DNA from: Promethearchaeota archaeon
GTDB lineage: Archaea; Asgardarchaeota; Lokiarchaeia; Sigyniarchaeales; SOKP01
Direction of reading: 5' to 3'
Assembly: GCA_011364925.1 (NCBI GenBank)
Contig: RDOA01000055.1
Location: forward strand, 1 to 22,941
Length of the DNA: 22,941 nt
Positions 6,379 through 20,938 of the stretch are shown one piece after another (the first letter of the stretch is position 1; each line of letters begins with the position of its first letter). The notes below the pieces were generated by a model. The model was not told the origin of the DNA. It saw nothing but the letters and a program-made list of their open reading frames with translations, and searched no databases. Both the position numbers and the translations under genes were made by a program.

Positions 6379-6630
6379 ATGTTAGAAAAGTTACAAAAAA
6401 GCCCTGAAGCTGCAATTTTTGCAGTAAATGAAGTTTTTAAAACCTACGAGCTAATGTGTTTGGATAAATTGAAGGAATTAGGAAGATCAACAGCTCGAGA
6501 TTGGTCTTTCGCAATGGGTTACACACATCGTAGTTCACTTGCGAAAATAATCAAGAGAATCAAGGAAAGATACCCTGAAAAGCTTAAAATCTATGATAAC
6601 AGATATCCTCGACTCTACGAAGCATTATAA
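6379..6630 (+). CDS. small winged helix-turn-helix DNA-binding protein
   Basis: LDKLKELGRSTARDWSFAMGYTHRSSLAKIIKRI followed by the beta-wing LKIYDNRYPRLYEAL. Basic protein with an SD-like site. Confidence 0.7.
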   Translation: MLEKLQKSPEAAIFAVNEVFKTYELMCLDKLKELGRSTARDWSFAMGYTHRSSLAKIIKRIKERYPEKLKIYDNRYPRLYEAL

Positions 6631-6742
6631 CGAGTGAAATTACAATACATACTCAGATTCTTTACTATTCGTTCATTCTCCCTTCAATTCTACACATTAT
6701 CAATATTTTTTTAAAAGATATATCAATACGAGTGGTTAAAAA

Positions 6743-6988
6743 ATGATAATAAAATGTCCGGAATGCGGGTTAGAATATTCCTATGGCAGAAACATTTGTC
6801 ACAAGTGTGAAAGTAATACGATATTATTTGGTGCCATTTTTGAAGGACCGAGACAAACTTATCAATGGAATTGCGAAAGCTATTTTAACAATGAAGCTCT
6901 CTCATTTAAGAACATAGATTCTCATAAGGAATTCTTAAGAATTACATCCGAAGAAAAAGATGTTAAAATAGAAGAAATTTTAAATTAA
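6743..6988 (+). CDS. small zinc-ribbon protein
   Basis: CPEC-x10-CHKC at the N-terminus and an acidic C-terminus. Confidence 0.7.
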   Translation: MIIKCPECGLEYSYGRNICHKCESNTILFGAIFEGPRQTYQWNCESYFNNEALSFKNIDSHKEFLRITSEEKDVKIEEILN

Positions 6989-7016
6989 ATGAAGAAAATG
7001 AACAGAGTAGCCAACA

Positions 7017-7142
7017 GTAGCTTTCTAATCTTTGCCATCGAGATTAGAAGCAAGAAGACACGACTACTACAGGAAGCTCTTGCCATGGGTGCCCCCTATG
7101 TTCAAAACATAGCCATGGCAAGAGCTAACATTCCAATTTTTT
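7017..7142 (+). promoter_or_regulatory. two-hairpin structured element (candidate cis-regulatory RNA or terminator) upstream of hdrBC-gltB
   Basis: A 9-bp stem at 7023-7031/7041-7049, then a 14-bp stem at 7075-7088/7113-7126 enclosing a 7-bp stem at 7096-7102/7106-7112. T6 tract at 7137-7142. Confidence 0.6.
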
Positions 7143-7146
7143 AGAA

Positions 7147-8513
7147 ATGAAAAAATAAAAAGTGAAAAGAACATTCAACAGGAGGTTGTATTATTTCCAG
7201 GATGTGTAATTACGCACCGGCTTCCATTTATAGAAGTTTCAATAAGGAATGTTCTGGATCACCTCGAAATCCTCTATAAAGAAAACTCAAAGTTTTCCTG
7301 TTGTCCGGAACCAAATGGTATAAAAAATTCGAATAAGTTCTTGTATTCAATAACGGCCGCTCGTAATCTTGCCCTTGCTGAAAAAGAAAATCAGATTTTA
7401 CTTACCCCGTGTAACGGATGTTTTACAACTCTTAAAAAGGTGGAAGGGGAACTTGAAGAAAATCACGACTTCATGAGGGAGATAAATCGATATTTAGACA
7501 AGATTGACTTAACAATTCAAGGAAAAACTGACGTTTTCCATATGGTTGAGTTTTTTTTTAAATTCAGGAGAGAAGCGATTAGGGATAACCTTAAACATCC
7601 TTTAATCGGATTAAGGATTGCTGTACATCATGGATGCCATTTTCTTAGACCTAGCAATCGAGTCCAAACAGACGATCCTTTAAAACCGACTATATTTGAC
7701 GAATTAATTACGGATTTAGGTGCTGAAAGTATTGATTATTCGCTTAAAATGGAATGTTGTGGGGGGAGTCTTGAAAGAGCTGGGAAGTTCAATTTATCCC
7801 TTGAGATTCTTCACGCTAAATTAGAAAGCATGAAAGAGCAGGAAGTCGATTGTATTGTTGTTAGCTGTCCTCAATGTTTTATTCAATTTGATCACCTTCA
7901 GCAAGAATTGAAAAGGCAAGAATATGAATTTGATATTCCAGTTTTATATTACTCAGAATTATTATGTTTGGCTTTTGGGATCGATATTCGAGATCTAATT
8001 GAAAAATTCCATAGAACCAATGTTGGATCGCTGTTTGAGAAGATTAGAATGATCCAAGAGAAGAATCGCGAAATTAAAAAGTATTTCGATCTAAATTTCT
8101 TGATAAAATGTCATTCATGTGGCGCTTGTGAAACTGATTGTATCCTTGCCAAAATGACAGATTTCAGTCCAAAAGAGATTATAAACAAACTCCTTTGTGG
8201 TGAAATCGACGAAGTAGTTTCAGATCCTTCGATTTGGATGTGTCTTGATTGTTACTTATGCTTTGAACTATGCCCAATGAGAGTCGGGCTTGTCGAAGTA
8301 TTTACAATTTTACGAAATTTAGCGACACAGAAAGGTTTTGTTACAAAAGGATTTGAAGCTGAATTTAATTCATTCCACCAAAATGGAATTATAGGGATGG
8401 TGTCAAAAACCGCTCGAAAAAGAGTTGGTTTGGAATTCCATAAACCCGATGTAGGAGATTTGAAAGAATTATTTAATTTAATAGAAAGAGAAAGTATAAG
8501 AAGAGATTCTTAA
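7147..8513 (+). CDS. hdrB: heterodisulfide reductase HdrB-HdrC fusion protein (start ambiguous, apparent frameshift near the 5' end)
   Basis: The frame extends upstream of the track's TTG 7341 through LFPGCVITHRLPFIE...FSCCPEP. It gives two complete CCG motifs (C-x31-CC-x35-CNGC and C-x39-CC-x35-CPQC), then a C-terminal HdrC-like 2x[4Fe-4S] domain (CHSCGACETDC, WMCLDCYLCFELCP). Confidence 0.85.
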
Positions 8514-8534
8514 AAGTAGAAAGGTAATGATAAA

Positions 8535-9728
8535 ATGAGATGGGAGAATTATACATCTTTACCTGAAACTTTTAGGAATCAGAGAGTCTTCGATGGATGC
8601 GGAATTTCTGGTCTGATTAATATAGATGGGACAAGAATTTCAGGAGATACTGTTATTGACATGCTGTGCATTCTAAAAGAAAGGGAAAATGGGTTGGGTG
8701 CAGGGTATGCGGCATATGGAATCTATCCGGAATACAAGGATTATTTTGCTTTTCATTTTCTTTTTGATAATGAAACTGCTAAGTCAAAAGTTCTTGAATA
8801 TCTTGAAAATTTCGGTAGTGTTATCCAATCTGAACCCATTCCAACAAGTCTTTCTCACGAAATTGACAATCCTCCAATAACTTGGAGAGTATTTTTTAAC
8901 CCCATAAGTGAGAGAAATCAAGATGAAGCGGAAAAAATAGTTCAAATCGTTATGGAAATCAATGAGAATATAGATAATGCTTACGTAATGTCATCAGGAA
9001 AAAATATGGGCGTGTTTAAAGGGAATGGTTGGTCACATGAGATAGCAGATTTCTACAAAATTAGAGAATATAAGGCTTATATGTGGCTAGCACATTCAAG
9101 GTTCCCTACTAATACTCCTGGATGGTGGGGTGGAGCTCATCCATTTAATTTGTTGAATTGTTCTGTAATTCATAATGGTGAAATCACTTCCTATGGCACG
9201 AACAGGAGATATTTAGAGTCATTTGGCTACAAATGTACATTATTTACTGATACTGAAGTTATTGCGTATTTAATTGATTTGTTATGCCGTAGACATAAAT
9301 TTCCAATATCTATTGCAACTATTGCTTTAGCACCACCACTATTTGACGAGATTGAGAAACTTGATAGAAAATCTCAAATAATTATTAAAAATATTAGAGC
9401 GACTTATAGGAGTGCTATGTTAAATGGCCCATTTTCTATAGTTGTAGGGAATTCAGATCCTATACCAACGATGATGGGTTTATCTGACAGGAAAAAATTG
9501 CGTCCATTAGTGGTCGGAATTTCTGAAGATGAAAACACAATTTACATGAGCAGTGAAGAAGCTTCGTTTAATCGCTTAATGCTTATTAACAATAGGCTTG
9601 ATTTAAAAGAAGTATGGCACCCGAAAAGTGGGACTGCTGTTATCGCTAAGCTAGGGAAAGGATTAATCAAAAATGGTATTGAAAATCCTCTAAAAAAAAG
9701 GACAATTGCTCTATTGGAGGTGGCATAA
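8535..9728 (+). CDS. gltB1: glutamate synthase, glutamine amidotransferase (class II, Ntn) subunit, archaeal GltB1
   Basis: Short propeptide followed by CGISG; also ERENGLGAG, AHSRFPTNT, AHPF, HNGEI, TDTE, LNGPFS and DRKKLRP. Confidence 0.92.
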   Translation: MRWENYTSLPETFRNQRVFDGCGISGLINIDGTRISGDTVIDMLCILKERENGLGAGYAAYGIYPEYKDYFAFHFLFDNETAKSKVLEYLENFGSVIQSEPIPTSLSHEIDNPPITWRVFFNPISERNQDEAEKIVQIVMEINENIDNAYVMSSGKNMGVFKGNGWSHEIADFYKIREYKAYMWLAHSRFPTNTPGWWGGAHPFNLLNCSVIHNGEITSYGTNRRYLESFGYKCTLFTDTEVIAYLIDLLCRRHKFPISIATIALAPPLFDEIEKLDRKSQIIIKNIRATYRSAMLNGPFSIVVGNSDPIPTMMGLSDRKKLRPLVVGISEDENTIYMSSEEASFNRLMLINNRLDLKEVWHPKSGTAVIAKLGKGLIKNGIENPLKKRTIALLEVA

Positions 9729-11249
9729 ATGGCAATCGCACATGAAATTATTTCGCACTACAAAGTAAACATAGATCGCGAAGACTGCCAAAAATGCAAA
9801 AGATGCTTGACTAACTGTTCTTTTGGAGTTTTTTCTTTCAATGGAGAACGGATTATTGCTCAGAGCAATAAATGCGTTGCTTGCCAGAGGTGCGTTGTTA
9901 TGTGCCCTGCAAAAGCTATCCATATTTCACAAAGCGAATCGTTTTTACCACCTCATGGGAATTATACGAGAAAAATACGTAATATCATTTGGGCTCAATC
10001 TGGCAACGGAGGAGTCTTACTTTCGGCAACAGGGAACGATAGACCTATTAGATCGATATTTGACGATCTCCTTCTTGATGCTTGTCAAGTGACTAACCCC
10101 AGTATTGACCCTCTCCGGGAAACTATTGAAACTAAGATCTTTTTCGGTCGAAAACCAAAGAAACTTGAATTTATTGTGGAATCTGATGACTTTACAGATG
10201 TATCGCTTAAGACTCAAATTTTCCCCAATTTTGAGATTGATATGCCTATTATGGTTGGTCACATGAGTTTAGGATCGATTAGTTATAACGCGTGTCAAGC
10301 TATATACCGAGCCGCACGAGAATTAAATATTATAGCTGGTTCGGGAGAAGGAGGTTTACATCCCGACTTTTATGAGTTTGCTCCAAATATTATTACTGAA
10401 ATTGCTTCAGGACGATTTGGAGTAGATATTAATTATTTAAACAATGCAGCTGGTTTAGAAATAAAGATTGGTCAAGGTGCAAAACCCGGTCACGGTGGGC
10501 ATTTACCAGGAGAGAAAGTAAATAGTTTAATAGCTCAAACTCGGATGATTCCGGAAGGTAGTGATGCATTATCTCCTTATCCTCATCACGATATCTATTC
10601 AATTGAAGATTTAGCTCAATTAATAGCTGCATTAAAAGAAGCGACTAGATATAAGGTTCCAGTCGGAGTAAAAATAGCAGCAGTCCATAATTCCGCTCCA
10701 ATCGCAGTCGGTATAGTAAGGGGCGGAGCAGATTTTTTAACTCTTGATGGGTTTAGAGGTGGAACTGGTGCTGCACCAAGGATAATAAGAGATCATGCGG
10801 GAATTCCCATTGAGCTAGCTATTGCTGCTGTAGACGAGAGACTTAGGCAAGAAAATTTAAGAGAGGAAGTAACTTTAATTGCTGGAGGCTCAATCCGTTA
10901 TTCTGCTGATTTAGTTAAAGCAATAGCTTTAGGTGCTGATGTTGCAATGTGTAGTTTACCAGTATTAATTGCAATGGGGTGTAGGGTTTGTCAGCAATGC
11001 TTTAGAGGTCTCTGTTCTTGGGGGATTGCCACTCAGCAGGAATATTTAGTTAAAAGATTAGATATAGATATAGCGAAAAAAAGGATTATTAATTTATTTC
11101 ATTCTTGGAATGAAGAGTTAAAAGAAGTTTTAGGAGCGATGGGTATTGATTCAGTAGAGTCGCTTCGTTCAAATAGGGATCGATTAAGATACATCGGTCC
11201 AAACCCGCGAATAGCGGATATTTTAGGAGTAAAACACGCAGGCGAATAA
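9729..11249 (+). CDS. gltB2: glutamate synthase FMN-binding subunit with N-terminal ferredoxin domain, archaeal GltB2
   Basis: Two CxxCxxCxxxC motifs; MSLGSIS, SGEGG, ASGRFG, EIKIGQGAKPGHGGHLPGEKV, HHDIYSIEDL; [3Fe-4S] motif CRVCQQCFRGLC. SD GGAGGTG upstream. Confidence 0.95.
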   Translation: MAIAHEIISHYKVNIDREDCQKCKRCLTNCSFGVFSFNGERIIAQSNKCVACQRCVVMCPAKAIHISQSESFLPPHGNYTRKIRNIIWAQSGNGGVLLSATGNDRPIRSIFDDLLLDACQVTNPSIDPLRETIETKIFFGRKPKKLEFIVESDDFTDVSLKTQIFPNFEIDMPIMVGHMSLGSISYNACQAIYRAARELNIIAGSGEGGLHPDFYEFAPNIITEIASGRFGVDINYLNNAAGLEIKIGQGAKPGHGGHLPGEKVNSLIAQTRMIPEGSDALSPYPHHDIYSIEDLAQLIAALKEATRYKVPVGVKIAAVHNSAPIAVGIVRGGADFLTLDGFRGGTGAAPRIIRDHAGIPIELAIAAVDERLRQENLREEVTLIAGGSIRYSADLVKAIALGADVAMCSLPVLIAMGCRVCQQCFRGLCSWGIATQQEYLVKRLDIDIAKKRIINLFHSWNEELKEVLGAMGIDSVESLRSNRDRLRYIGPNPRIADILGVKHAGE

Positions 11250-11252
11250 ATT

Positions 11253-12086
11253 ATGATTATAAATGAAGTTAAAGAAAAAATTTACGAGATCGGTTTTGAT
11301 GACATAATAGAAATAGACGCAGCTCCAAATGGAGAGCCGATTGATTATCGGGATTTAAATGCTATGATACACGCAAGAACTCTTAAAAATTGCAAAAAAA
11401 TTGTTTTATATAATATTTGTGGACAACGTTTTATAGGCGCTGCGTTACAAGGGGATTTTGAAATTATTATTAACGGTGTTCCTGGAAACGATTTAGGAAT
11501 CTTTATGGATGGACCTAAAATCACTGTTTATGGAAATTGCGAAGATCAAGTAGGGAACACCATGAATCAAGGCTCTATGATAATTAATGGAAACGGTGGC
11601 GATGTGATTGGTTTATCGGCTAGAGGAGGAACAATCTATATTAAGGGTGATGTAGGATACCGAGTTGGGATTCATATGAAAGAATACAAGAATAAATTCC
11701 CAATTATAATTATTGGGGGTACTGCTAAAGATTTTTTAGGTGAATACATGGCAGGCGGAATAATTGTTGTGCTTGGGTTAAAATTCTTACCTGATGGCTC
11801 TATTATTGACATAGACCAATCTATTTGTGGTAATGAGTTAGGAACGGGAATTCATAGAGGCAGTATCTACCTAAGAACTGATGAGAAATTAGAGGATAAA
11901 TTAGGTGTTGGTGCTAAAATTGTGGAATTTGATGGAAAAGGAAAAGAGGAAATCGGGCCATTTCTGTATGAATATTGCGAAACATTCAATATTCCATTCG
12001 ATTTGGTTATTAATAAGCAATTTCAGGTGATAAAACCAATTTCGAAAAGACCTTACGGAGGAACCTACTGTAATAAGATGATATAA
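11253..12086 (+). CDS. gltB3: glutamate synthase GXGXG beta-helix subunit, archaeal GltB3
   Basis: Glycine repeats GQRFIG, GVPGNDLGIFMDG, GDVGYRVGIHM and DFLGEYMAGG. Starts 3 nt after gltB2. Confidence 0.92.
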   Translation: MIINEVKEKIYEIGFDDIIEIDAAPNGEPIDYRDLNAMIHARTLKNCKKIVLYNICGQRFIGAALQGDFEIIINGVPGNDLGIFMDGPKITVYGNCEDQVGNTMNQGSMIINGNGGDVIGLSARGGTIYIKGDVGYRVGIHMKEYKNKFPIIIIGGTAKDFLGEYMAGGIIVVLGLKFLPDGSIIDIDQSICGNELGTGIHRGSIYLRTDEKLEDKLGVGAKIVEFDGKGKEEIGPFLYEYCETFNIPFDLVINKQFQVIKPISKRPYGGTYCNKMI

Positions 12087-12143: not shown

Positions 12144-13943
12144 TTATTCTAATGTTTTTTCGAATTCGTTAACGAATTCTTCGATTTGATTTATACCGAG
12201 TTTCCAGAAGTCCGGTTTTGTGATATCTAATCCGACGATGTTAGCTAGTTCCACAGGAGATAAGCTCCCTCCAGCGCTTAACAGTTTTTTAAACTTTGGA
12301 ATAAATTCCTTTCCTTCTTCCTTAAACTTGCGATACAAAGCGAATACAAACAGTTGAGCGTAAACATAAGGATAGTTATAAAAACGGAAATTTGGCATGA
12401 AGTAGTGTGGTTTCATAGTCCATTCCCAGATCATTTCATCAAACCACTCAACAGAATCTCCGTAAATACGATCGCGTCCTGTGCACCAATATTTCGAGAT
12501 TGTTGGCCCGTCTAAATTTTCACCATTTTCAATCGCTTCATAAAGGCTTTGTTCAAAAAACACTCTTCCACTTACCTGAAACGCTGCTTGTCCCGTATCA
12601 TCCAATACATGGGCAAGTATTGCTCTTTTTTCTTCTTTTGTCGCTGCTTTTTTAAGCAAAAGATCAGTTGTTAAAAGTTCACCAAATGTAGAAGCTGTCT
12701 CTGCAACTGTATAGCCAGGATGTTGATTGAAAAAGGTTTGGTTTCTTGAAGCAAGGTAATCGTGAACAGCGTGCCCTAATTCATGCGCAAGAGTGTAGAT
12801 TTCGTTTAAAGCACCAGTGAAGGATAGCAATATAAAAGCTGACTTTCCATTATACCACGATGAACAATATGCCCCATTTCGCTTTCCCTTCCTTACTGCT
12901 GCGTCGATATGGTTTTTTTCGAACATGTCAATCACATAATTTTTGAAATCCTCGTCAACGTTCCCATATGCTTCTAATACGAGTTCTTTTGCCTCATCCC
13001 ACGTTCTCTTTTTCATTGAGGGCGCTTCCAAGGGTGCTCTAACATCGGCGCAAGTTAGTTTATCTAAATTCATTACTTTTGCTTTTAATTTAAGGTATCT
13101 TTGATAAACATCGACATTTTCTTCAACAACTTTCATCAAATTGTCTATAATTTCTTGAGTTGTATCATTGAAAATAAGGCTATGATGCATTGGGCCGTCG
13201 AATTTGCGTCTTTTGGAAATCTTCGTCCAATCTGAGCAAATACATCTAAGAGCTGTAGAAAATACTTCTTGATTCTTACCGAGTAATCCATAAATAGATT
13301 TATTTGTAGAAATTCTCGTATTTCTATCAGGATGAGTTATTAGACTATTTGCCTCCCCGTAAGATAAAACTTGCTCTACTCCCTCAACCATAACATGAAA
13401 TTCTCTCGTATTAAGCCATTTTCCTTGCAATTCACTCCATGCTCTCACTCCAAACTGATCTTTCTCTAAAATAAGTTGTTCTTCAACCTCTGATAATAAA
13501 TGAGGTACATTTCTTTGAATTTTCTCTAGGTAATGTTTGTAGTCTTTTAAGACTGGATCGCTGATAAATTCCTTTTTATCCTTAATTAATTTTCCAATCT
13601 CTAGTTTAAAGAACGCCAAAGTCTTTGAAGTTTCAGTTAGGAAGTCATCAATTTTTTTTTTAAGTGCCTCAGATTCTGGAATTGTCATGTTTGCGTCATA
13701 ATTTAGATGAGCAAAAGTAGTTAACTCGTCTAAATCAGCATCAAATCTTTCTTGCTTTCTGAATAGTTCGTAAAGCTGTTCAGTTGAAAAAGTTGCTATG
13801 TTAATCTTTCCTTTGTATTCGTTCACAAATTCATCAGTTTGTTTTTGAAGCGCATCCATATATTTAGCAATTCTTGGATCATCATGCTTAGTGAAAATCT
13901 CAGATAAGTCCCAAGCTATTTCATTTTCTGTCATAATTATCAA
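12144..13943 (-). CDS. pepF: oligoendopeptidase F (peptidase M3B)
   Basis: N-terminal WDLSEIF, RKGKRNGAYC, zinc motif TLAHELGHAVH, AETAS, PHY...FYNYPY. Confidence 0.93.
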   Translation of the reverse strand: MIIMTENEIAWDLSEIFTKHDDPRIAKYMDALQKQTDEFVNEYKGKINIATFSTEQLYELFRKQERFDADLDELTTFAHLNYDANMTIPESEALKKKIDDFLTETSKTLAFFKLEIGKLIKDKKEFISDPVLKDYKHYLEKIQRNVPHLLSEVEEQLILEKDQFGVRAWSELQGKWLNTREFHVMVEGVEQVLSYGEANSLITHPDRNTRISTNKSIYGLLGKNQEVFSTALRCICSDWTKISKRRKFDGPMHHSLIFNDTTQEIIDNLMKVVEENVDVYQRYLKLKAKVMNLDKLTCADVRAPLEAPSMKKRTWDEAKELVLEAYGNVDEDFKNYVIDMFEKNHIDAAVRKGKRNGAYCSSWYNGKSAFILLSFTGALNEIYTLAHELGHAVHDYLASRNQTFFNQHPGYTVAETASTFGELLTTDLLLKKAATKEEKRAILAHVLDDTGQAAFQVSGRVFFEQSLYEAIENGENLDGPTISKYWCTGRDRIYGDSVEWFDEMIWEWTMKPHYFMPNFRFYNYPYVYAQLFVFALYRKFKEEGKEFIPKFKKLLSAGGSLSPVELANIVGLDITKPDFWKLGINQIEEFVNEFEKTLE

Positions 13944-16693: not shown

Positions 16694-17944
16694 TTACAAC
16701 CATCCTCTAAGTTTCATAGCGTTGACAACTCTTTCTACAGAGATACTATACGCACCCATTCGGTTATAGGTATTATAACGCTTCGCGTGATCAACTGTAG
16801 ATCGATACGCGTTAGTCATAACTCTGTCTAACGCTTCAAACACTTCTTTCTCAGTCCAGAAATAACTATAATAACCTTGGACCATCTCAAAATAAGAAAC
16901 TGTCACTCCACCTGCATTGCAGAGGAAATCGGGGATGACAAGGACTCCTTTATCAAATAAGACTTTGTCCGCATCTGGAGTGGTAGGACCATTGGCTTGC
17001 TCTGCTAAAATTTTACATTTAACATTATTGACATTTTTAGCGGTTATCACATTCTCTAATGCCGCAGGAATTAGAATGTCCACATCTAATTCTAATAATT
17101 CCTCGTTTGTTATTGGTTGAGTTCCTTCTAAACCAACAACTGATCTCGTTTTTTCTTTATGTTGACCTGCATCGAATGAATTAATACCATCTTTATTGAA
17201 AATACCTCCCTTAGAATCTGACACTGCAATAATTTTACAATTAAAATCATTTTGTAAAAGCTTTGCCGACCAAGATCCTGCGTTTCCATAGCCTTGGACT
17301 GCCACTGTTGCGCCGTTCAAATTTAGTCCGATATCCTTTGCTGCTTCTCTTATTGTAAATACTCCTCCCTTAGCGGTTGAGATAGATCTTCCTGCACTCC
17401 CCCCTATTGGTAGAGGCTTACCCGTAATTACAGATGGAGCATGTTTACGTACAATTGTTTCGTACTCGTCCATCATCCAAGCCATTATTTGAGGAGTAGT
17501 ATAAACATCTGGTGCTGGTACGTCTACATTAGGCCCTATAAAATCTGCAAGTTTTCGTATAAACGCTCTCGCAAGAGTTTCAAGTTCCCTATTACTCATT
17601 CCTTTAGGATTGCAGATAATACCCCCTTTAGCCCCTCCAAGAGGGATATCTACAACCGCTGTCTTCCAAGTCATCCATGCGCTTAAGGCTTTCACAAGAG
17701 AAGCACTTTCTTCGGGATGCCATCGAATTCCACCTTTCATTGGGCCTCGAGCAGAATTGTATTGAGACCTAAAACCACGGAATGTCTTTAACGAGCCATC
17801 ATCCATTTTCATGGTAATTTTAACTTCGATGAATCTTTCTGGTACACTTAATGCATCATATATCTCCTTACCATACCCTAATATCTCGCAAGCATCAGAT
17901 AGTTGTTCTTGAGAGATCTTAAATGGATCCAAATTTTCACTCAT
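16694..17944 (-). CDS. gdhA: glutamate dehydrogenase, paralogue 1
   Basis: [61 protein letters not shown]. Confidence 0.95.
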
Positions 17945-19343: not shown

Positions 19344-19681
19344 TTTGGTAATGTTATTCTTTTTTAATTATTTGATAATAATAGGAATCTCAATAATACT
19401 TTAATAGATTTTAGATAATAAAAGTATGAATTTCTTGAATTAATTTATTAATTGTATTTATGTTTAAAATTGTAGGTATTGAGGTTTTTTATATACATTT
19501 TGGGATTAGCAACAATACAAATAATAATTATATGAATAAAAAAAACCTACTATTCAAATATTGAAATGAATTTGTGTGGACGATACCCATTTCATCTCAT
19601 AAATAATTAATGCAAAAAAGATTAAATTTTATGGGGAATAAGTTCTCCTATCATTTTCATAATTTAAACAGTGTATTGTTT

Positions 19682-20938
19682 ATGGTTGAAGAAATAAATC
19701 CTTACGATGTAGCAAAAGCTCAAATTGATATTGTAGCGAAAGAAATGGGATTAGAGAAAAATATAGCGGAGTATCTCAAAAGAATCGAACGTGCGTTAAT
19801 AGTCACTATTCCAATTATAATGGATGATGGTTCATTAAAGATCTTTGAAGGCTATAGAGTGCATCATTCTACAGTTCGAGGTCCAGGTAAAGGTGGAATA
19901 AGATTCTCGATGGAAGTTACTTTAGACGAAGTAAAAGCTCTCGCAACTTGGATGACATGGAAAACTAGCTTATTGAACTTACCTTTGGGTGGAGCAAAGG
20001 GCGGAGTTCGCGTAGATCCTAGGAAACTTTCATTTAAAGAGTTAGAACGTCTTACAAGAAGATATACCGCTGAAATAATAAATGTTATAGGTCCGGATAT
20101 TGACATACCGGCGCCTGACATAAACACTAATTCCCAGATCATGGCCTGGATGATGGATGTATACTCAATGCAAAAAGGACGCTCGATCCCCGGAGTGGTA
20201 ACAGGAAAACCTGTGGAAATTGGCGGTTCAGTAGGTAGAGAACCGGCTACTGGTATGGGGATGTATTATGTGCTTCAAGCTTTATGCGAAAAAATGAACT
20301 TGGATTTAAAGTCGCAAAGAATAGTTATTCAGGGTCTTGGTAATGTAGGTGGTACGATTGCTGATATTTTATATAAGGAAGGCTGTAAAATATTGGCAGT
20401 GTCAGATATATCTACTGGAATTTACTGCGAGGATGGTTTAGAAATCGATAAATTATTAGAATGGGCAAAAGCTAGAAATGCCCTTATAGATTATAAAAAC
20501 GATAATTATAAGTTCATTACTAACCACGAATTGCTTACTACTAAATGTGATGTATTGATTCCTTCTGCTATAGAAAATCAAATAACCCAAGCTAATGCGG
20601 ATAAAATAGATTGTAAGATTATAGTAGAAGGTGCAAACGGACCAACCACTCCAGAAGCAGATAAAGTTCTTTTTAAAAAAGGGATACGTGTAATACCTGA
20701 TATACTTGCTAATAGTGGTGGCGTATGCGTATCATATTTTGAGTACATTCAAGATATCAACTCGTACTTCTGGAAACTCGACCGGATTAATGCAGAGCTT
20801 AAATCAATAATAATTGAAGCGTTTGAAGAAACATACAAAATATCAGAAGAGAGAAAAATACCTCTTAGAACGGCAGCATACATTATTGCGGTCTCAAGAA
20901 TTGCGAAAGCTATCGAACTGAGAGGATTTTTTCCTTAA
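19682..20938 (+). CDS. gdhA: glutamate dehydrogenase, paralogue 2
   Basis: GPGKGGIR, MTWK, LGGAKGG, DIPAPD, IQGLGNVG, EGANGPTT. ATG 19682 (MVEEINPY) aligns with paralogue 1's MSENLDPF and is preferred over 19610. Confidence 0.95.
   Translation: MVEEINPYDVAKAQIDIVAKEMGLEKNIAEYLKRIERALIVTIPIIMDDGSLKIFEGYRVHHSTVRGPGKGGIRFSMEVTLDEVKALATWMTWKTSLLNLPLGGAKGGVRVDPRKLSFKELERLTRRYTAEIINVIGPDIDIPAPDINTNSQIMAWMMDVYSMQKGRSIPGVVTGKPVEIGGSVGREPATGMGMYYVLQALCEKMNLDLKSQRIVIQGLGNVGGTIADILYKEGCKILAVSDISTGIYCEDGLEIDKLLEWAKARNALIDYKNDNYKFITNHELLTTKCDVLIPSAIENQITQANADKIDCKIIVEGANGPTTPEADKVLFKKGIRVIPDILANSGGVCVSYFEYIQDINSYFWKLDRINAELKSIIIEAFEETYKISEERKIPLRTAAYIIAVSRIAKAIELRGFFP

Follow-up and report, generated by a model that had tools for sequence, protein, structure and literature searches.

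Characterised glutamate synthases are NAD(P)H- or ferredoxin-dependent, and for methanogens F420 has been proposed as the electron donor. The split synthase of methanogens has an FrhB-like fourth subunit (PMC3087415, PMC9012536); its F420 dependence is putative, and biochemical proof is lacking according to PMC3087415. TfrAB uses thiols for a biosynthetic fumarate reduction (PMC8764690), and in the sHdr-LbpA system Hdr-like non-cubane proteins are genetically tied to lipoyl carriers, with dihydrolipoyl dehydrogenase proposed as the NAD link (PMC6067878). Within our coverage of the literature, outside which most subscription journals fall, we found no account of a glutamate synthase linked to HdrBC. 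Here we describe a candidate in a Lokiarchaeon, where four adjoining genes probably encode a glutamine-dependent glutamate synthase with an HdrB-HdrC fusion as its electron-input subunit, fed by a dithiol. We hold this reading, which is drawn from sequence, with moderate confidence.

The window, meaning the whole stretch of 22,941 nt that was analysed, contains the following features around the locus.

6379-6630 and 6743-6988 (together 6379-6988), plus strand: two small co-directional ORFs
about 7073-7132, plus strand: decayed remnant of an extra FMN-binding glutamate-synthase-family gene, from DNA alignment to intact paralogue coding regions
7113-8513, plus strand: open reading frame of hdrBC in the ORF list
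7160-7175, plus strand: RBS-like AAGTGA (7160-7165) and probable AUU start codon (7173-7175), from orthologue comparison
7173-8513, plus strand: hdrBC fusion, 446 aa from the probable ATT start, from Pfam/NCBIfam, PDB sequence matches, ligands and fold
8535-9728, plus strand: gltB1, class II glutamine amidotransferase, 397 aa, from motifs and domain match
9729-11249, plus strand: gltB2, 506 aa, N-terminal 2x[4Fe-4S] ferredoxin domain and FMN synthase barrel
11253-12086, plus strand: gltB3, GXGXG beta-helix subunit, 277 aa (PF01493, E 1e-30)
12144-13943, convergent to the cluster: pepF

The initial annotation had described a tight co-directional cluster led by hdrBC and closed by the convergent pepF. 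The spacing of the four genes (21, 0 and 3 nt) and the pepF boundary hold, but transcription may start ahead of hdrBC, with the two small ORFs possibly leading the transcript. Across the cluster the domains run CCG plus 2x[4Fe-4S], GATase_2, ferredoxin plus Glu_synthase, and GXGXG. The cluster is also, as first described, devoid of GltD, an FrhB-like subunit and HdrA; all three types are encoded only elsewhere in the genome. The GltD-like genes lie on other contigs, and the pairing of GltD with GltB that defines the NAD(P)H-dependent GltBD is thus not seen. A sigma-70 promoter scan, which does not cover archaeal promoters, stayed at chance level.

Of the small ORF products (Atlas score 0.89, a lead only), the one of 83 aa is weakly helix-turn-helix-like and the one of 81 aa has a paired CxxC; both ORFs sit ahead of gltB1 in G003 and G273, genomes without hdrBC at that place. 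A strong hairpin was found at about 7075-7130 (z -3.9), for which Rfam gave no credible match. We rejected it as a regulatory RNA since its sequence can be aligned with the coding region of the extra FMN paralogue, whose remnant explains it, and later co-option of the remnant may have taken place. The intact paralogue, identified by Pfam and Atlas, is about 550 aa and often lies beside this operon in relatives, and tblastn detected no intact copy in the assembly. The remnant itself matches with 80% over 20 aa by tblastn, and coding selection was not seen on it. A leader peptide encoded by the 51-aa ORF at 6989-7144 was dismissed, the ORF having 2 synonymous versus 12 non-synonymous changes.

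The fusion was reported to have its CCG motifs intact, and we confirmed this for both CCG motifs along with both HdrC cubane motifs. The HdrB part (residues about 1-293) has two CCG domains with ligands C11, C43, C44, C80 and C83 and a second set of C155, H156, C195, C196, C232 and C235, while the HdrC part (about 300-446) has cubane motifs C313/316/319/323 and C357/360/363/367. These ligands are invariant or almost invariant in 68 homologues, and two CCG domains, 10 Cys plus His and two cubane motifs are what the HdrB/HdrC fold family calls for. The AlphaFold model (pLDDT 92.6) matches 5odc_B with a Foldseek TM of 0.93. In GltB1 the nucleophile Cys22 follows a short propeptide, with motifs HSRFPTN and HNGE. 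GltB2 has 8 Cys in its ferredoxin domain, and its barrel (PF01645, E 1e-126), aligned to solved GltS, has the substrate motif together with an invariant cluster motif CxxCxxCxxxxC formed by C418, C421, C424 and C429. Among 79 complete loci the two HdrB motifs are present in 79 and 77, and the GltB1 Cys with HNGE and the GltB2 ferredoxin and cluster Cys are found in all. With amidotransferase, FMN barrel and GXGXG subunit, gltB1-3 have the sequence features of a split archaeal glutamate synthase, which is their predicted activity.

The adjacency proved to be conserved in Asgard genomes, metagenomes and bacteria when neighbourhoods of hdrB/hdrC and gltB1-3 were searched, as the initial annotation had suggested doing. 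Of 400 Asgard genomes, 54 from 8 families and 17 genera have the fused HdrB-HdrC; it stands one gene upstream of gltB2 in 44 of these and has gltB1 directly next in 6, and the other 4 stop at a contig edge. For the metagenomes, where loci were picked by HdrBC similarity alone, gltB1 comes next in 67/73 loci of the B-then-C order and the remaining 6 end within 360 nt, as against 0/5 canonical C-then-B loci. Named bacterial carriers are Bacillota, Ca. Acidulodesulfobacterium and Planctomycetota. Type I glnA adjoins 18/73 loci and amt 4, and glnK is also among the neighbours, an assimilatory setting. In trees the HdrB clusters with other glt-linked HdrB, apart from the canonical HdrB paralogues of this genome. 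A single origin of the glt-linked HdrB gave p-AU 0.38 in a quick tree, with 26 versus 13 rows picked after the first tree, and in a larger tree labels are unreliable where loci are cut at contig ends. HdrB distances follow those of GltB2 with rho 0.81 (GltB1-GltB2, rho 0.87), which shows, as far as distances go, co-inheritance and not co-evolution.

Other modules occupy the same position in related operons. A single contig of G307 carries a pair of split-GltB operons, of which one begins with hdrBC and the other with an NAD(P)H flavoprotein and ferredoxin, and the second synthase of the present genome is followed by etfB-etfA, the ETF being ferredoxin-fused. Neither the flavoprotein nor EtfA was found in any of the B-C loci of the metagenome set. 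A separate canonical hdrCBA directly follows gltB3 in one other lineage. In the Bacillota locus L207 the order is glnA, gltB1-2-3, lpdA, lipB, lipA, a free lipoyl domain and hdrBC, and L118 and L122 (54% identical to L207) have lpdA, a lipoyl domain, hdrBC and gltB1. Lipoyl genes flank the operon in 3 of the 156 loci searched, all bacterial and none Asgard; the lipoyl domains are E2-type, and a GcvH query does not pick them up. The present genome itself has LpdA, a LipS2-ligase-LipS1 cluster and two GcvH in which the lipoyl Lys is present. GcvH (50/53 carriers) and LpdA (47/53) are near-universal in carriers and non-carriers and therefore do not discriminate; a strong LpdA match is missing from three near-complete carriers. 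Family searches of the host found no DsrC and no ComA, the latter in an assembly with gaps and for the ComA route only, and the thiols may therefore be others than CoM/CoB. Gene content, conservation, residues, fold and the alternative modules are direct observations.

On this basis we infer that HdrBC and the synthase form a complex, that the reaction runs towards glutamate and that the thiol is a dithiol. The two non-cubane [4Fe-4S] clusters of HdrB would convert a dithiol, or a pair of thiols, from the reduced form to the disulfide, and single electrons would pass via the two cubanes of HdrC to the N-terminal ferredoxin domain of GltB2, to which HdrC would be physically wired, and on through GltB2's own Fe-S cluster to FMN. 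GltB1 would free ammonia, which with 2-oxoglutarate would give 2-iminoglutarate to be reduced by FMN, and the thiol would be re-reduced elsewhere. The best-supported carrier would be a dihydrolipoyl group attached to a protein, with dihydrolipoyl dehydrogenase using NADH to recharge it; as a second option, a bifurcating HdrABC separate from the synthase would recharge a pool of thiols. HdrBC had from the outset been proposed to join thiol/disulfide redox to glutamate synthesis, and the genomic side of that proposal (adjacency, ligands, module swaps and lipoyl genes) is borne out. Taken together, the data point to nitrogen assimilation powered by thiol carriers, probably protein-bound lipoate, and not by NADPH or ferredoxin.

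The reported potentials are -0.29 V for dihydrolipoamide (PMC6067878), -281 mV for CoM/CoB (PMC12054007) and -240 to -270 mV for the FMN of GltS (PMC8097209). With textbook values as inputs, we computed about -45 kJ/mol for the overall thiol-driven reaction, and synthesis with NADH leaves about 50 kJ/mol to spare. The cubane potentials of HdrC and GltB2 may place an uphill step in the chain.

It could also be that GltB2, via its own ferredoxin domain, takes electrons from free ferredoxin or from a GltD-like protein encoded in trans. In that case HdrBC would be co-regulated with the synthase and work alongside it when nitrogen is limiting, perhaps reducing disulfides with ferredoxin or serving as a redox switch on the enzyme. 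The GltD-like genes elsewhere in the genome fit such an arrangement, an AUU start may bring HdrBC output below 1:1, and G003, G015, G273 and G033 retain same-lineage gltB1-2(-3) without an upstream hdrBC, G015 having only a 74-aa HdrC remnant. Hence HdrBC is not strictly indispensable, or those glt copies are recent orphans. We still find this explanation unlikely, as the fusion is never apart from glt genes wherever this can be judged, in two domains of life, HdrBC occupies the slot of recognised electron modules in sister operons, and adjoining lpdA and lipoyl domain genes make sense only as an NADH-to-thiol feed.

Slightly less likely still, we believe, is that HdrBC is an adaptor docking directly on an HdrA encoded elsewhere, the synthase then being the high-potential sink of a flavin-bifurcating HdrA(-MvhD) complex and no thiol shuttling freely. 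There are numerous hdrA genes and 14 copies of mvhD in the genome, the ETF of the second synthase is another bifurcation-type module, and the NADH surplus given above would suit a bifurcating system. Against this, hdrA lies beside only 2/73 loci, there with its own canonical hdrCB, and the strictly conserved HdrB ligands imply thiol catalysis. In the HdrABC architecture HdrC is a two-ended wire, and therefore HdrA and GltB2 would be rivals for the same end.

The initial annotation had left open that the FMN subunit instead oxidises glutamate, to 2-oxoglutarate and ammonia, with HdrBC passing the electrons to a disulfide. Lokiarchaeia ferment amino acids, two glutamate dehydrogenases are encoded in the same window, and glnA was not assembled in this genome; it is present in 49/53 other carriers, and its distribution does not separate carriers from non-carriers. 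Hdr-like domains also take electrons in proposed M. acetivorans dehydrogenases (PMC8764690). The direction is nonetheless disfavoured and we think it improbable: by our computation, again on textbook inputs, it is uphill by about 30 kJ/mol with acceptors of -0.28 to -0.29 V and comes close to zero only if the older value of -138 mV is used, the amidotransferase, of no use in that direction, is intact in 79/79 loci, and type I glnA, amt and glnK are the neighbours.

The start of hdrBC is probably ATT 7173, with AAGTGA 7 nt ahead of it. The ATG at 7147 that was initially taken as start is off by 26 nt; it reads ATG AAA AAA TAA and stops after two codons. The same string occurs in the 90%-identical orthologue of G024, there in another frame relative to hdrB; a frameshift from this ATG was ruled out, since G000 and G024 differ in this frame relation and both keep the ATT frame. 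In 22 orthologue sequences ATG, GTG and TTG are absent from the stretch that runs from the upstream stop to the codon of the first Cys ligand, the codon at the start position is ATT in 21 and ATA in 1, and an SD-like motif lies ahead in all 22. The 5' stretch up to the first TTG has 9 synonymous versus 1 non-synonymous change against G024, that is purifying selection. That hdrBC is a pseudogene lacking a usable start codon, a doubt raised at the outset, or a chance neighbour would agree with the missing in-frame ATG/GTG/TTG and with its decay in G015, but we give it hardly any credence because AUU initiation is conserved among relatives, the 5' stretch is under selection, an intact frame encodes every ligand and the adjacency is itself conserved. 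The AUU start leads gene callers to cut many such hdrBC genes short, past the first Fe-S ligand.

A thiol-fed synthase would, if true, bring a new electron donor to a core nitrogen-assimilation reaction, and a protein-bound lipoyl group would be an HdrB substrate in organisms making no methane. The question of the HdrB substrate without methanogenesis becomes directly testable, and the Bacillota locus holds all parts for reconstitution in one cluster (LpdA, LipB, LipA, lipoyl carrier, HdrBC and GltB1-3). Further, we speculate, tentatively and with the odds rather against it, that this is a further, thiol-driven synthase class of Asgard archaea and anaerobic bacteria in which an HdrABC-recharged thiol makes nitrogen assimilation a high-potential sink driving ferredoxin reduction. 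Part of the roughly 50 kJ/mol released by NAD(P)H-dependent synthases would be recovered if the recharge by HdrABC is true. It should be noted that glt-linked hdrBC genes inflate counts of 'heterodisulfide reductase' in Asgard genome surveys.

Compared with known systems, the locus lacks the clustering with a type III ligase (GmaS) that goes with N-methylglutamate synthase MgsABC; the three neighbouring ligases tested are all above the type I GlnA cut-off and all fail type III. As in sHdr-LbpA, Hdr-like genes occur near lipoyl genes, here lpdA and a lipoyl domain in the 3 bacterial loci only, but the flow proposed there is from sulfur oxidation via lipoyl to NAD+ whereas here it would be from NADH to glutamate, and HdrA-like, LbpA and sulfur-transferase genes are absent from the window and the Asgard loci. 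With NADPH-GltS (GltBD of Azospirillum; PDB 1EA0, 6S6S) and ferredoxin-GltS (1LLW) the locus shares the Ntn amidotransferase, FMN barrel (E about 5e-56) and beta-helix, and hence the chemistry, and it differs in its three chains, the additional 2x[4Fe-4S] domain on GltB2 and an operon without GltD. The F420-type split synthase of methanogens and ANME (PMC3087415, PMC9012536) is likewise a several-subunit archaeal synthase with a dedicated electron-input gene, but its fourth subunit is the FAD/F420-binding FrhB and here it is the flavin-free HdrBC. HdrB and HdrC from the HdrABC of methanogens (PDB 5ODC, 7BKB, 8RVU) match at E 1e-48 to 1e-58 and 1e-14 to 1e-19, respectively, with all cluster ligands and a fold TM of 0.91-0.93; here the order is a fused B-C, the operon is without hdrA or mvhD, and the scores are below the equivalog cut-offs (TIGR03288, 248 versus 345; TIGR03290, 77 versus 160).

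The closest working analogue is TfrAB of Methanothermobacter, where an Hdr-type CCG/Fe-S module couples thiol oxidation to a reduction by a biosynthetic flavoenzyme, as proposed here. TfrB is HdrD-like with Fe-S first, whereas HdrBC has the B-then-C order. The acceptor there is an FAD fumarate reductase, a subunit not present here, and at this locus it would be an FMN glutamate synthase. HdrBC scores 62 on NF004898, below the cut-off of 385, and is hence not a member of that family but may work in a Tfr-like manner.

HdrBC heads a split glutamate synthase operon in the window (contig C66 of a 3.9 Mb genome in 112 contigs), whose homologues carry the names Promethearchaeota/Lokiarchaeia. The association is genuine and well outside what chance would give. 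The four genes are tightly packed with intergenic gaps of 21, 0 and 3 nt, the convergent pepF begins 57 nt past the operon end, and the Pfam and NCBIfam domains run as follows:

7173-8513, plus strand: hdrBC; CCG and dicluster ferredoxin (HdrB then HdrC)
8535-9728, plus strand: gltB1; class II amidotransferase
9729-11249, plus strand: gltB2; ferredoxin and glutamate-synthase FMN barrel
11253-12086, plus strand: gltB3; GXGXG

GltD, FrhB and HdrA were not found within the cluster, and all three are encoded elsewhere in the genome; gene calls and domains bear out the tight co-directional cluster without them that the initial annotation described. The hdrBC product (446 aa) matches methanogen HdrB and HdrC in sequence, scoring below the methanogen equivalog cut-offs, and its predicted fold (pLDDT 92.6) superposes on 5odc_B with a TM of 0.93. 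Across 68 homologues, the most distant at 32% identity, little or no variation is seen in the non-cubane-site ligands (ten Cys plus His) or in the eight cysteines of HdrC. In trees HdrB clusters with other glt-linked HdrB and apart from the canonical paralogues that the same genome encodes; the trees neither establish nor reject one origin for all glt-linked HdrB.

The HdrB-HdrC fusion was found in 54 of 400 Asgard genomes, covering 8 families and 17 genera, and 53 of these carriers have a matching GltB2. In 44 carriers the fusion and gltB2 share a contig, with the fusion one gene upstream; gltB1 directly follows it in 6 more, and the remaining 4 are cut by a contig end. Among 80 metagenome loci selected solely by HdrBC similarity, 73 show the B-then-C order, whether as a fusion or as two separate genes; gltB1 comes next in 67 of these, the other 6 ending within 360 nt, and in 0 of 5 canonical C-then-B loci. 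The unit also occurs in one Bacillota genome, Ca. Acidulodesulfobacterium and one planctomycete. Catalytic and cluster motifs are all kept across 79 complete loci, where HdrB distances track GltB2 distances nearly as closely as GltB1 distances do, a correlation that speaks for co-inheritance only. At one locus metV-metF lie immediately 3' of an hdrBC-gltB1-2-3 operon (L101:11872-13412). In G279:C122 (L213), about 3 kb lacking gltB2 separates hdrBC-gltB1 from a partial gltB3, and gltB2-gltB3 are on another contig; this is either rearrangement or misassembly.

The linkage holds in one direction only, as 13 genomes lack the fusion yet encode a related GltB2. Seven are a divergent lineage whose operon holds an NAD(P)H flavoprotein in 5 of 5 read, usually with a ferredoxin gene, 2 are cut by contig ends, and in 4 (G003, G015, G273 and G033) hdrBC is absent upstream. 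In G015 (L038:10130-10351) it has shrunk to a 74-codon HdrC remnant with gltB1-2-3 intact, a natural loss useful for study. A single contig of another Asgard genome, G307, holds both a split operon headed by hdrBC and a split operon headed by an NAD(P)H flavoprotein, and a second synthase in the window's genome is followed by etfB and ferredoxin-fused etfA. That operon (G000:C51:1-6532, L037) also has a long FMN subunit and an amidotransferase-GXGXG fusion, likewise in G010 (L046) and G030 (L047), and is possibly an ETF-coupled, bifurcating synthase. The split glutamate synthase of methanogens and ANME has an FrhB-like subunit (PMC3087415, PMC9012536). None of the HdrBC loci carried the NAD(P)H flavoprotein or EtfA. 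The simplest reading of these gene contents would be HdrBC as one among several interchangeable electron-input modules. The proposal that HdrBC is the redox partner is favoured by gene-order conservation and by the other electron modules in the same slot, while the 4 genomes that keep the synthase with no hdrBC upstream count against it. Co-regulation of HdrBC and the synthase without wiring is the alternative that holds up best against these data, and we consider it unlikely.

As to the electron donor, the Bacillota locus (GCA_040753155.1) reads glnA, gltB1-2-3, dihydrolipoyl dehydrogenase (scoring above cut-off), lipB, lipA, a free lipoyl domain of 76 aa, hdrBC. Two further loci (L118 and L122, 86% identical and each 54% to the Bacillota locus) read lpdA, lipoyl domain, hdrBC, gltB1. 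The window's genome encodes LpdA, two GcvH (one of them not part of the glycine-cleavage operon), six TusA-domain proteins and a LipS2-ligase-LipS1 cluster; searches there for ComA and DsrC found neither. The lipoate assembly cluster lies at G000:C42:235-3072 (L212), and the orphan GcvH-like protein (G000:C3:4713-5111, L211), its lipoyl Lys intact, is a candidate carrier. Lipoyl-system parts are equally common in fusion carriers and non-carriers, hence the lipoate model is permitted in Asgard archaea, not proven. Thiol:fumarate reductase is a precedent for thiol-driven reduction (PMC8764690) and sHdr lipoyl carriers for an Hdr-lipoyl link (PMC6067878). A thiol-driven glutamate synthase is the best explanation of hdrBC-gltB1-2-3, and on balance we lean towards it; a search of our searchable library found no paper describing an HdrBC-linked glutamate synthase. 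In one further lineage, represented by three near-identical loci, gltB3 is followed by a separate canonical hdrCBA; a thiol shuttle accounts for this arrangement better than HdrBC docking directly on HdrA does, and such docking seems quite unlikely. Four of 14 MvhD matches in the genome (contigs C38, C112 and C5) carry two TGA codons in frame, in keeping with selenocysteine.

Reported potentials are -0.29 V for dihydrolipoamide (PMC6067878), -281 mV for CoM/CoB (PMC12054007) and -240 to -270 mV for GltS FMN (PMC8097209). With textbook values, these give estimates of about -45 kJ/mol for thiol-driven forward glutamate synthesis and about +30 kJ/mol for glutamate oxidation. Reverse operation, initially suggested as the FMN subunit oxidising glutamate with a disulfide acceptor, would carry this cost and is improbable.

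The open hdrBC frame begins at 7113; its first ordinary start, TTG 7341, is already past three cluster ligands. ATG 7147, taken as the start in the initial annotation, had to be given up, as it runs into TAA after two Lys codons in the window and the G024 orthologue alike, and a one-base difference shifts its G024 counterpart into another frame. Among 47 lokiarchaeal orthologues, related sequences whose counts are not a statistical test, 22 have no ATG, GTG or TTG from the preceding stop codon to the first Cys; the same position holds ATT in 21 and ATA in 1 (ATT is 51% of Ile codons). An SD-like motif precedes it in all 22 (window site 7160-7175); of 12 orthologues that have a normal start close by, just 2 show such a motif there. 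Relative to G024, the 56-codon stretch between ATT 7173 and the TTG carries 9 synonymous changes and 1 replacement. Most likely hdrBC starts at AUU (7173) and is intact; against this recurrent start, its motif and the mainly synonymous change, a pseudogene is hardly credible. Many database copies have lost the first Fe-S ligand to truncation by gene callers (forms of 390, 419 and 430 aa).

Type I glnA flanks 18 of the 73 B-then-C loci and amt 4. In the window's genome glnA was searched for and not found assembled; as it is present in 22 of 22 congeners tested and 49 of 53 carriers, and in G010 stands ahead of the ETF-type operon, which in the window's genome is truncated at its 5' end, an assembly gap is likely. 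Near the operon in the window are:

6379-6630: small HTH-like ORF
6743-6988: small zinc-ribbon-like ORF, homologues of which adjoin glnA and glt operons in relatives (L039, L046, L057, L066)
7073-7132: remnant of an extra FMN-binding glutamate-synthase-family gene, intact at L057:12990-14636 and others
16694-17944, minus strand: glutamate dehydrogenase
19610-20938, plus strand: glutamate dehydrogenase

The two small ORFs are possible candidate nitrogen regulators, and the extra FMN-binding gene is often an operon neighbour in Lokiarchaeia and some bacteria. The dehydrogenase genes, less than 8 kb from the operon and with guaA between them, form a local nitrogen cluster with it.

The HdrBC-linked enzyme belongs to the split glutamate synthases; it is proposed to work like TfrAB, yet stands outside the TfrAB family.
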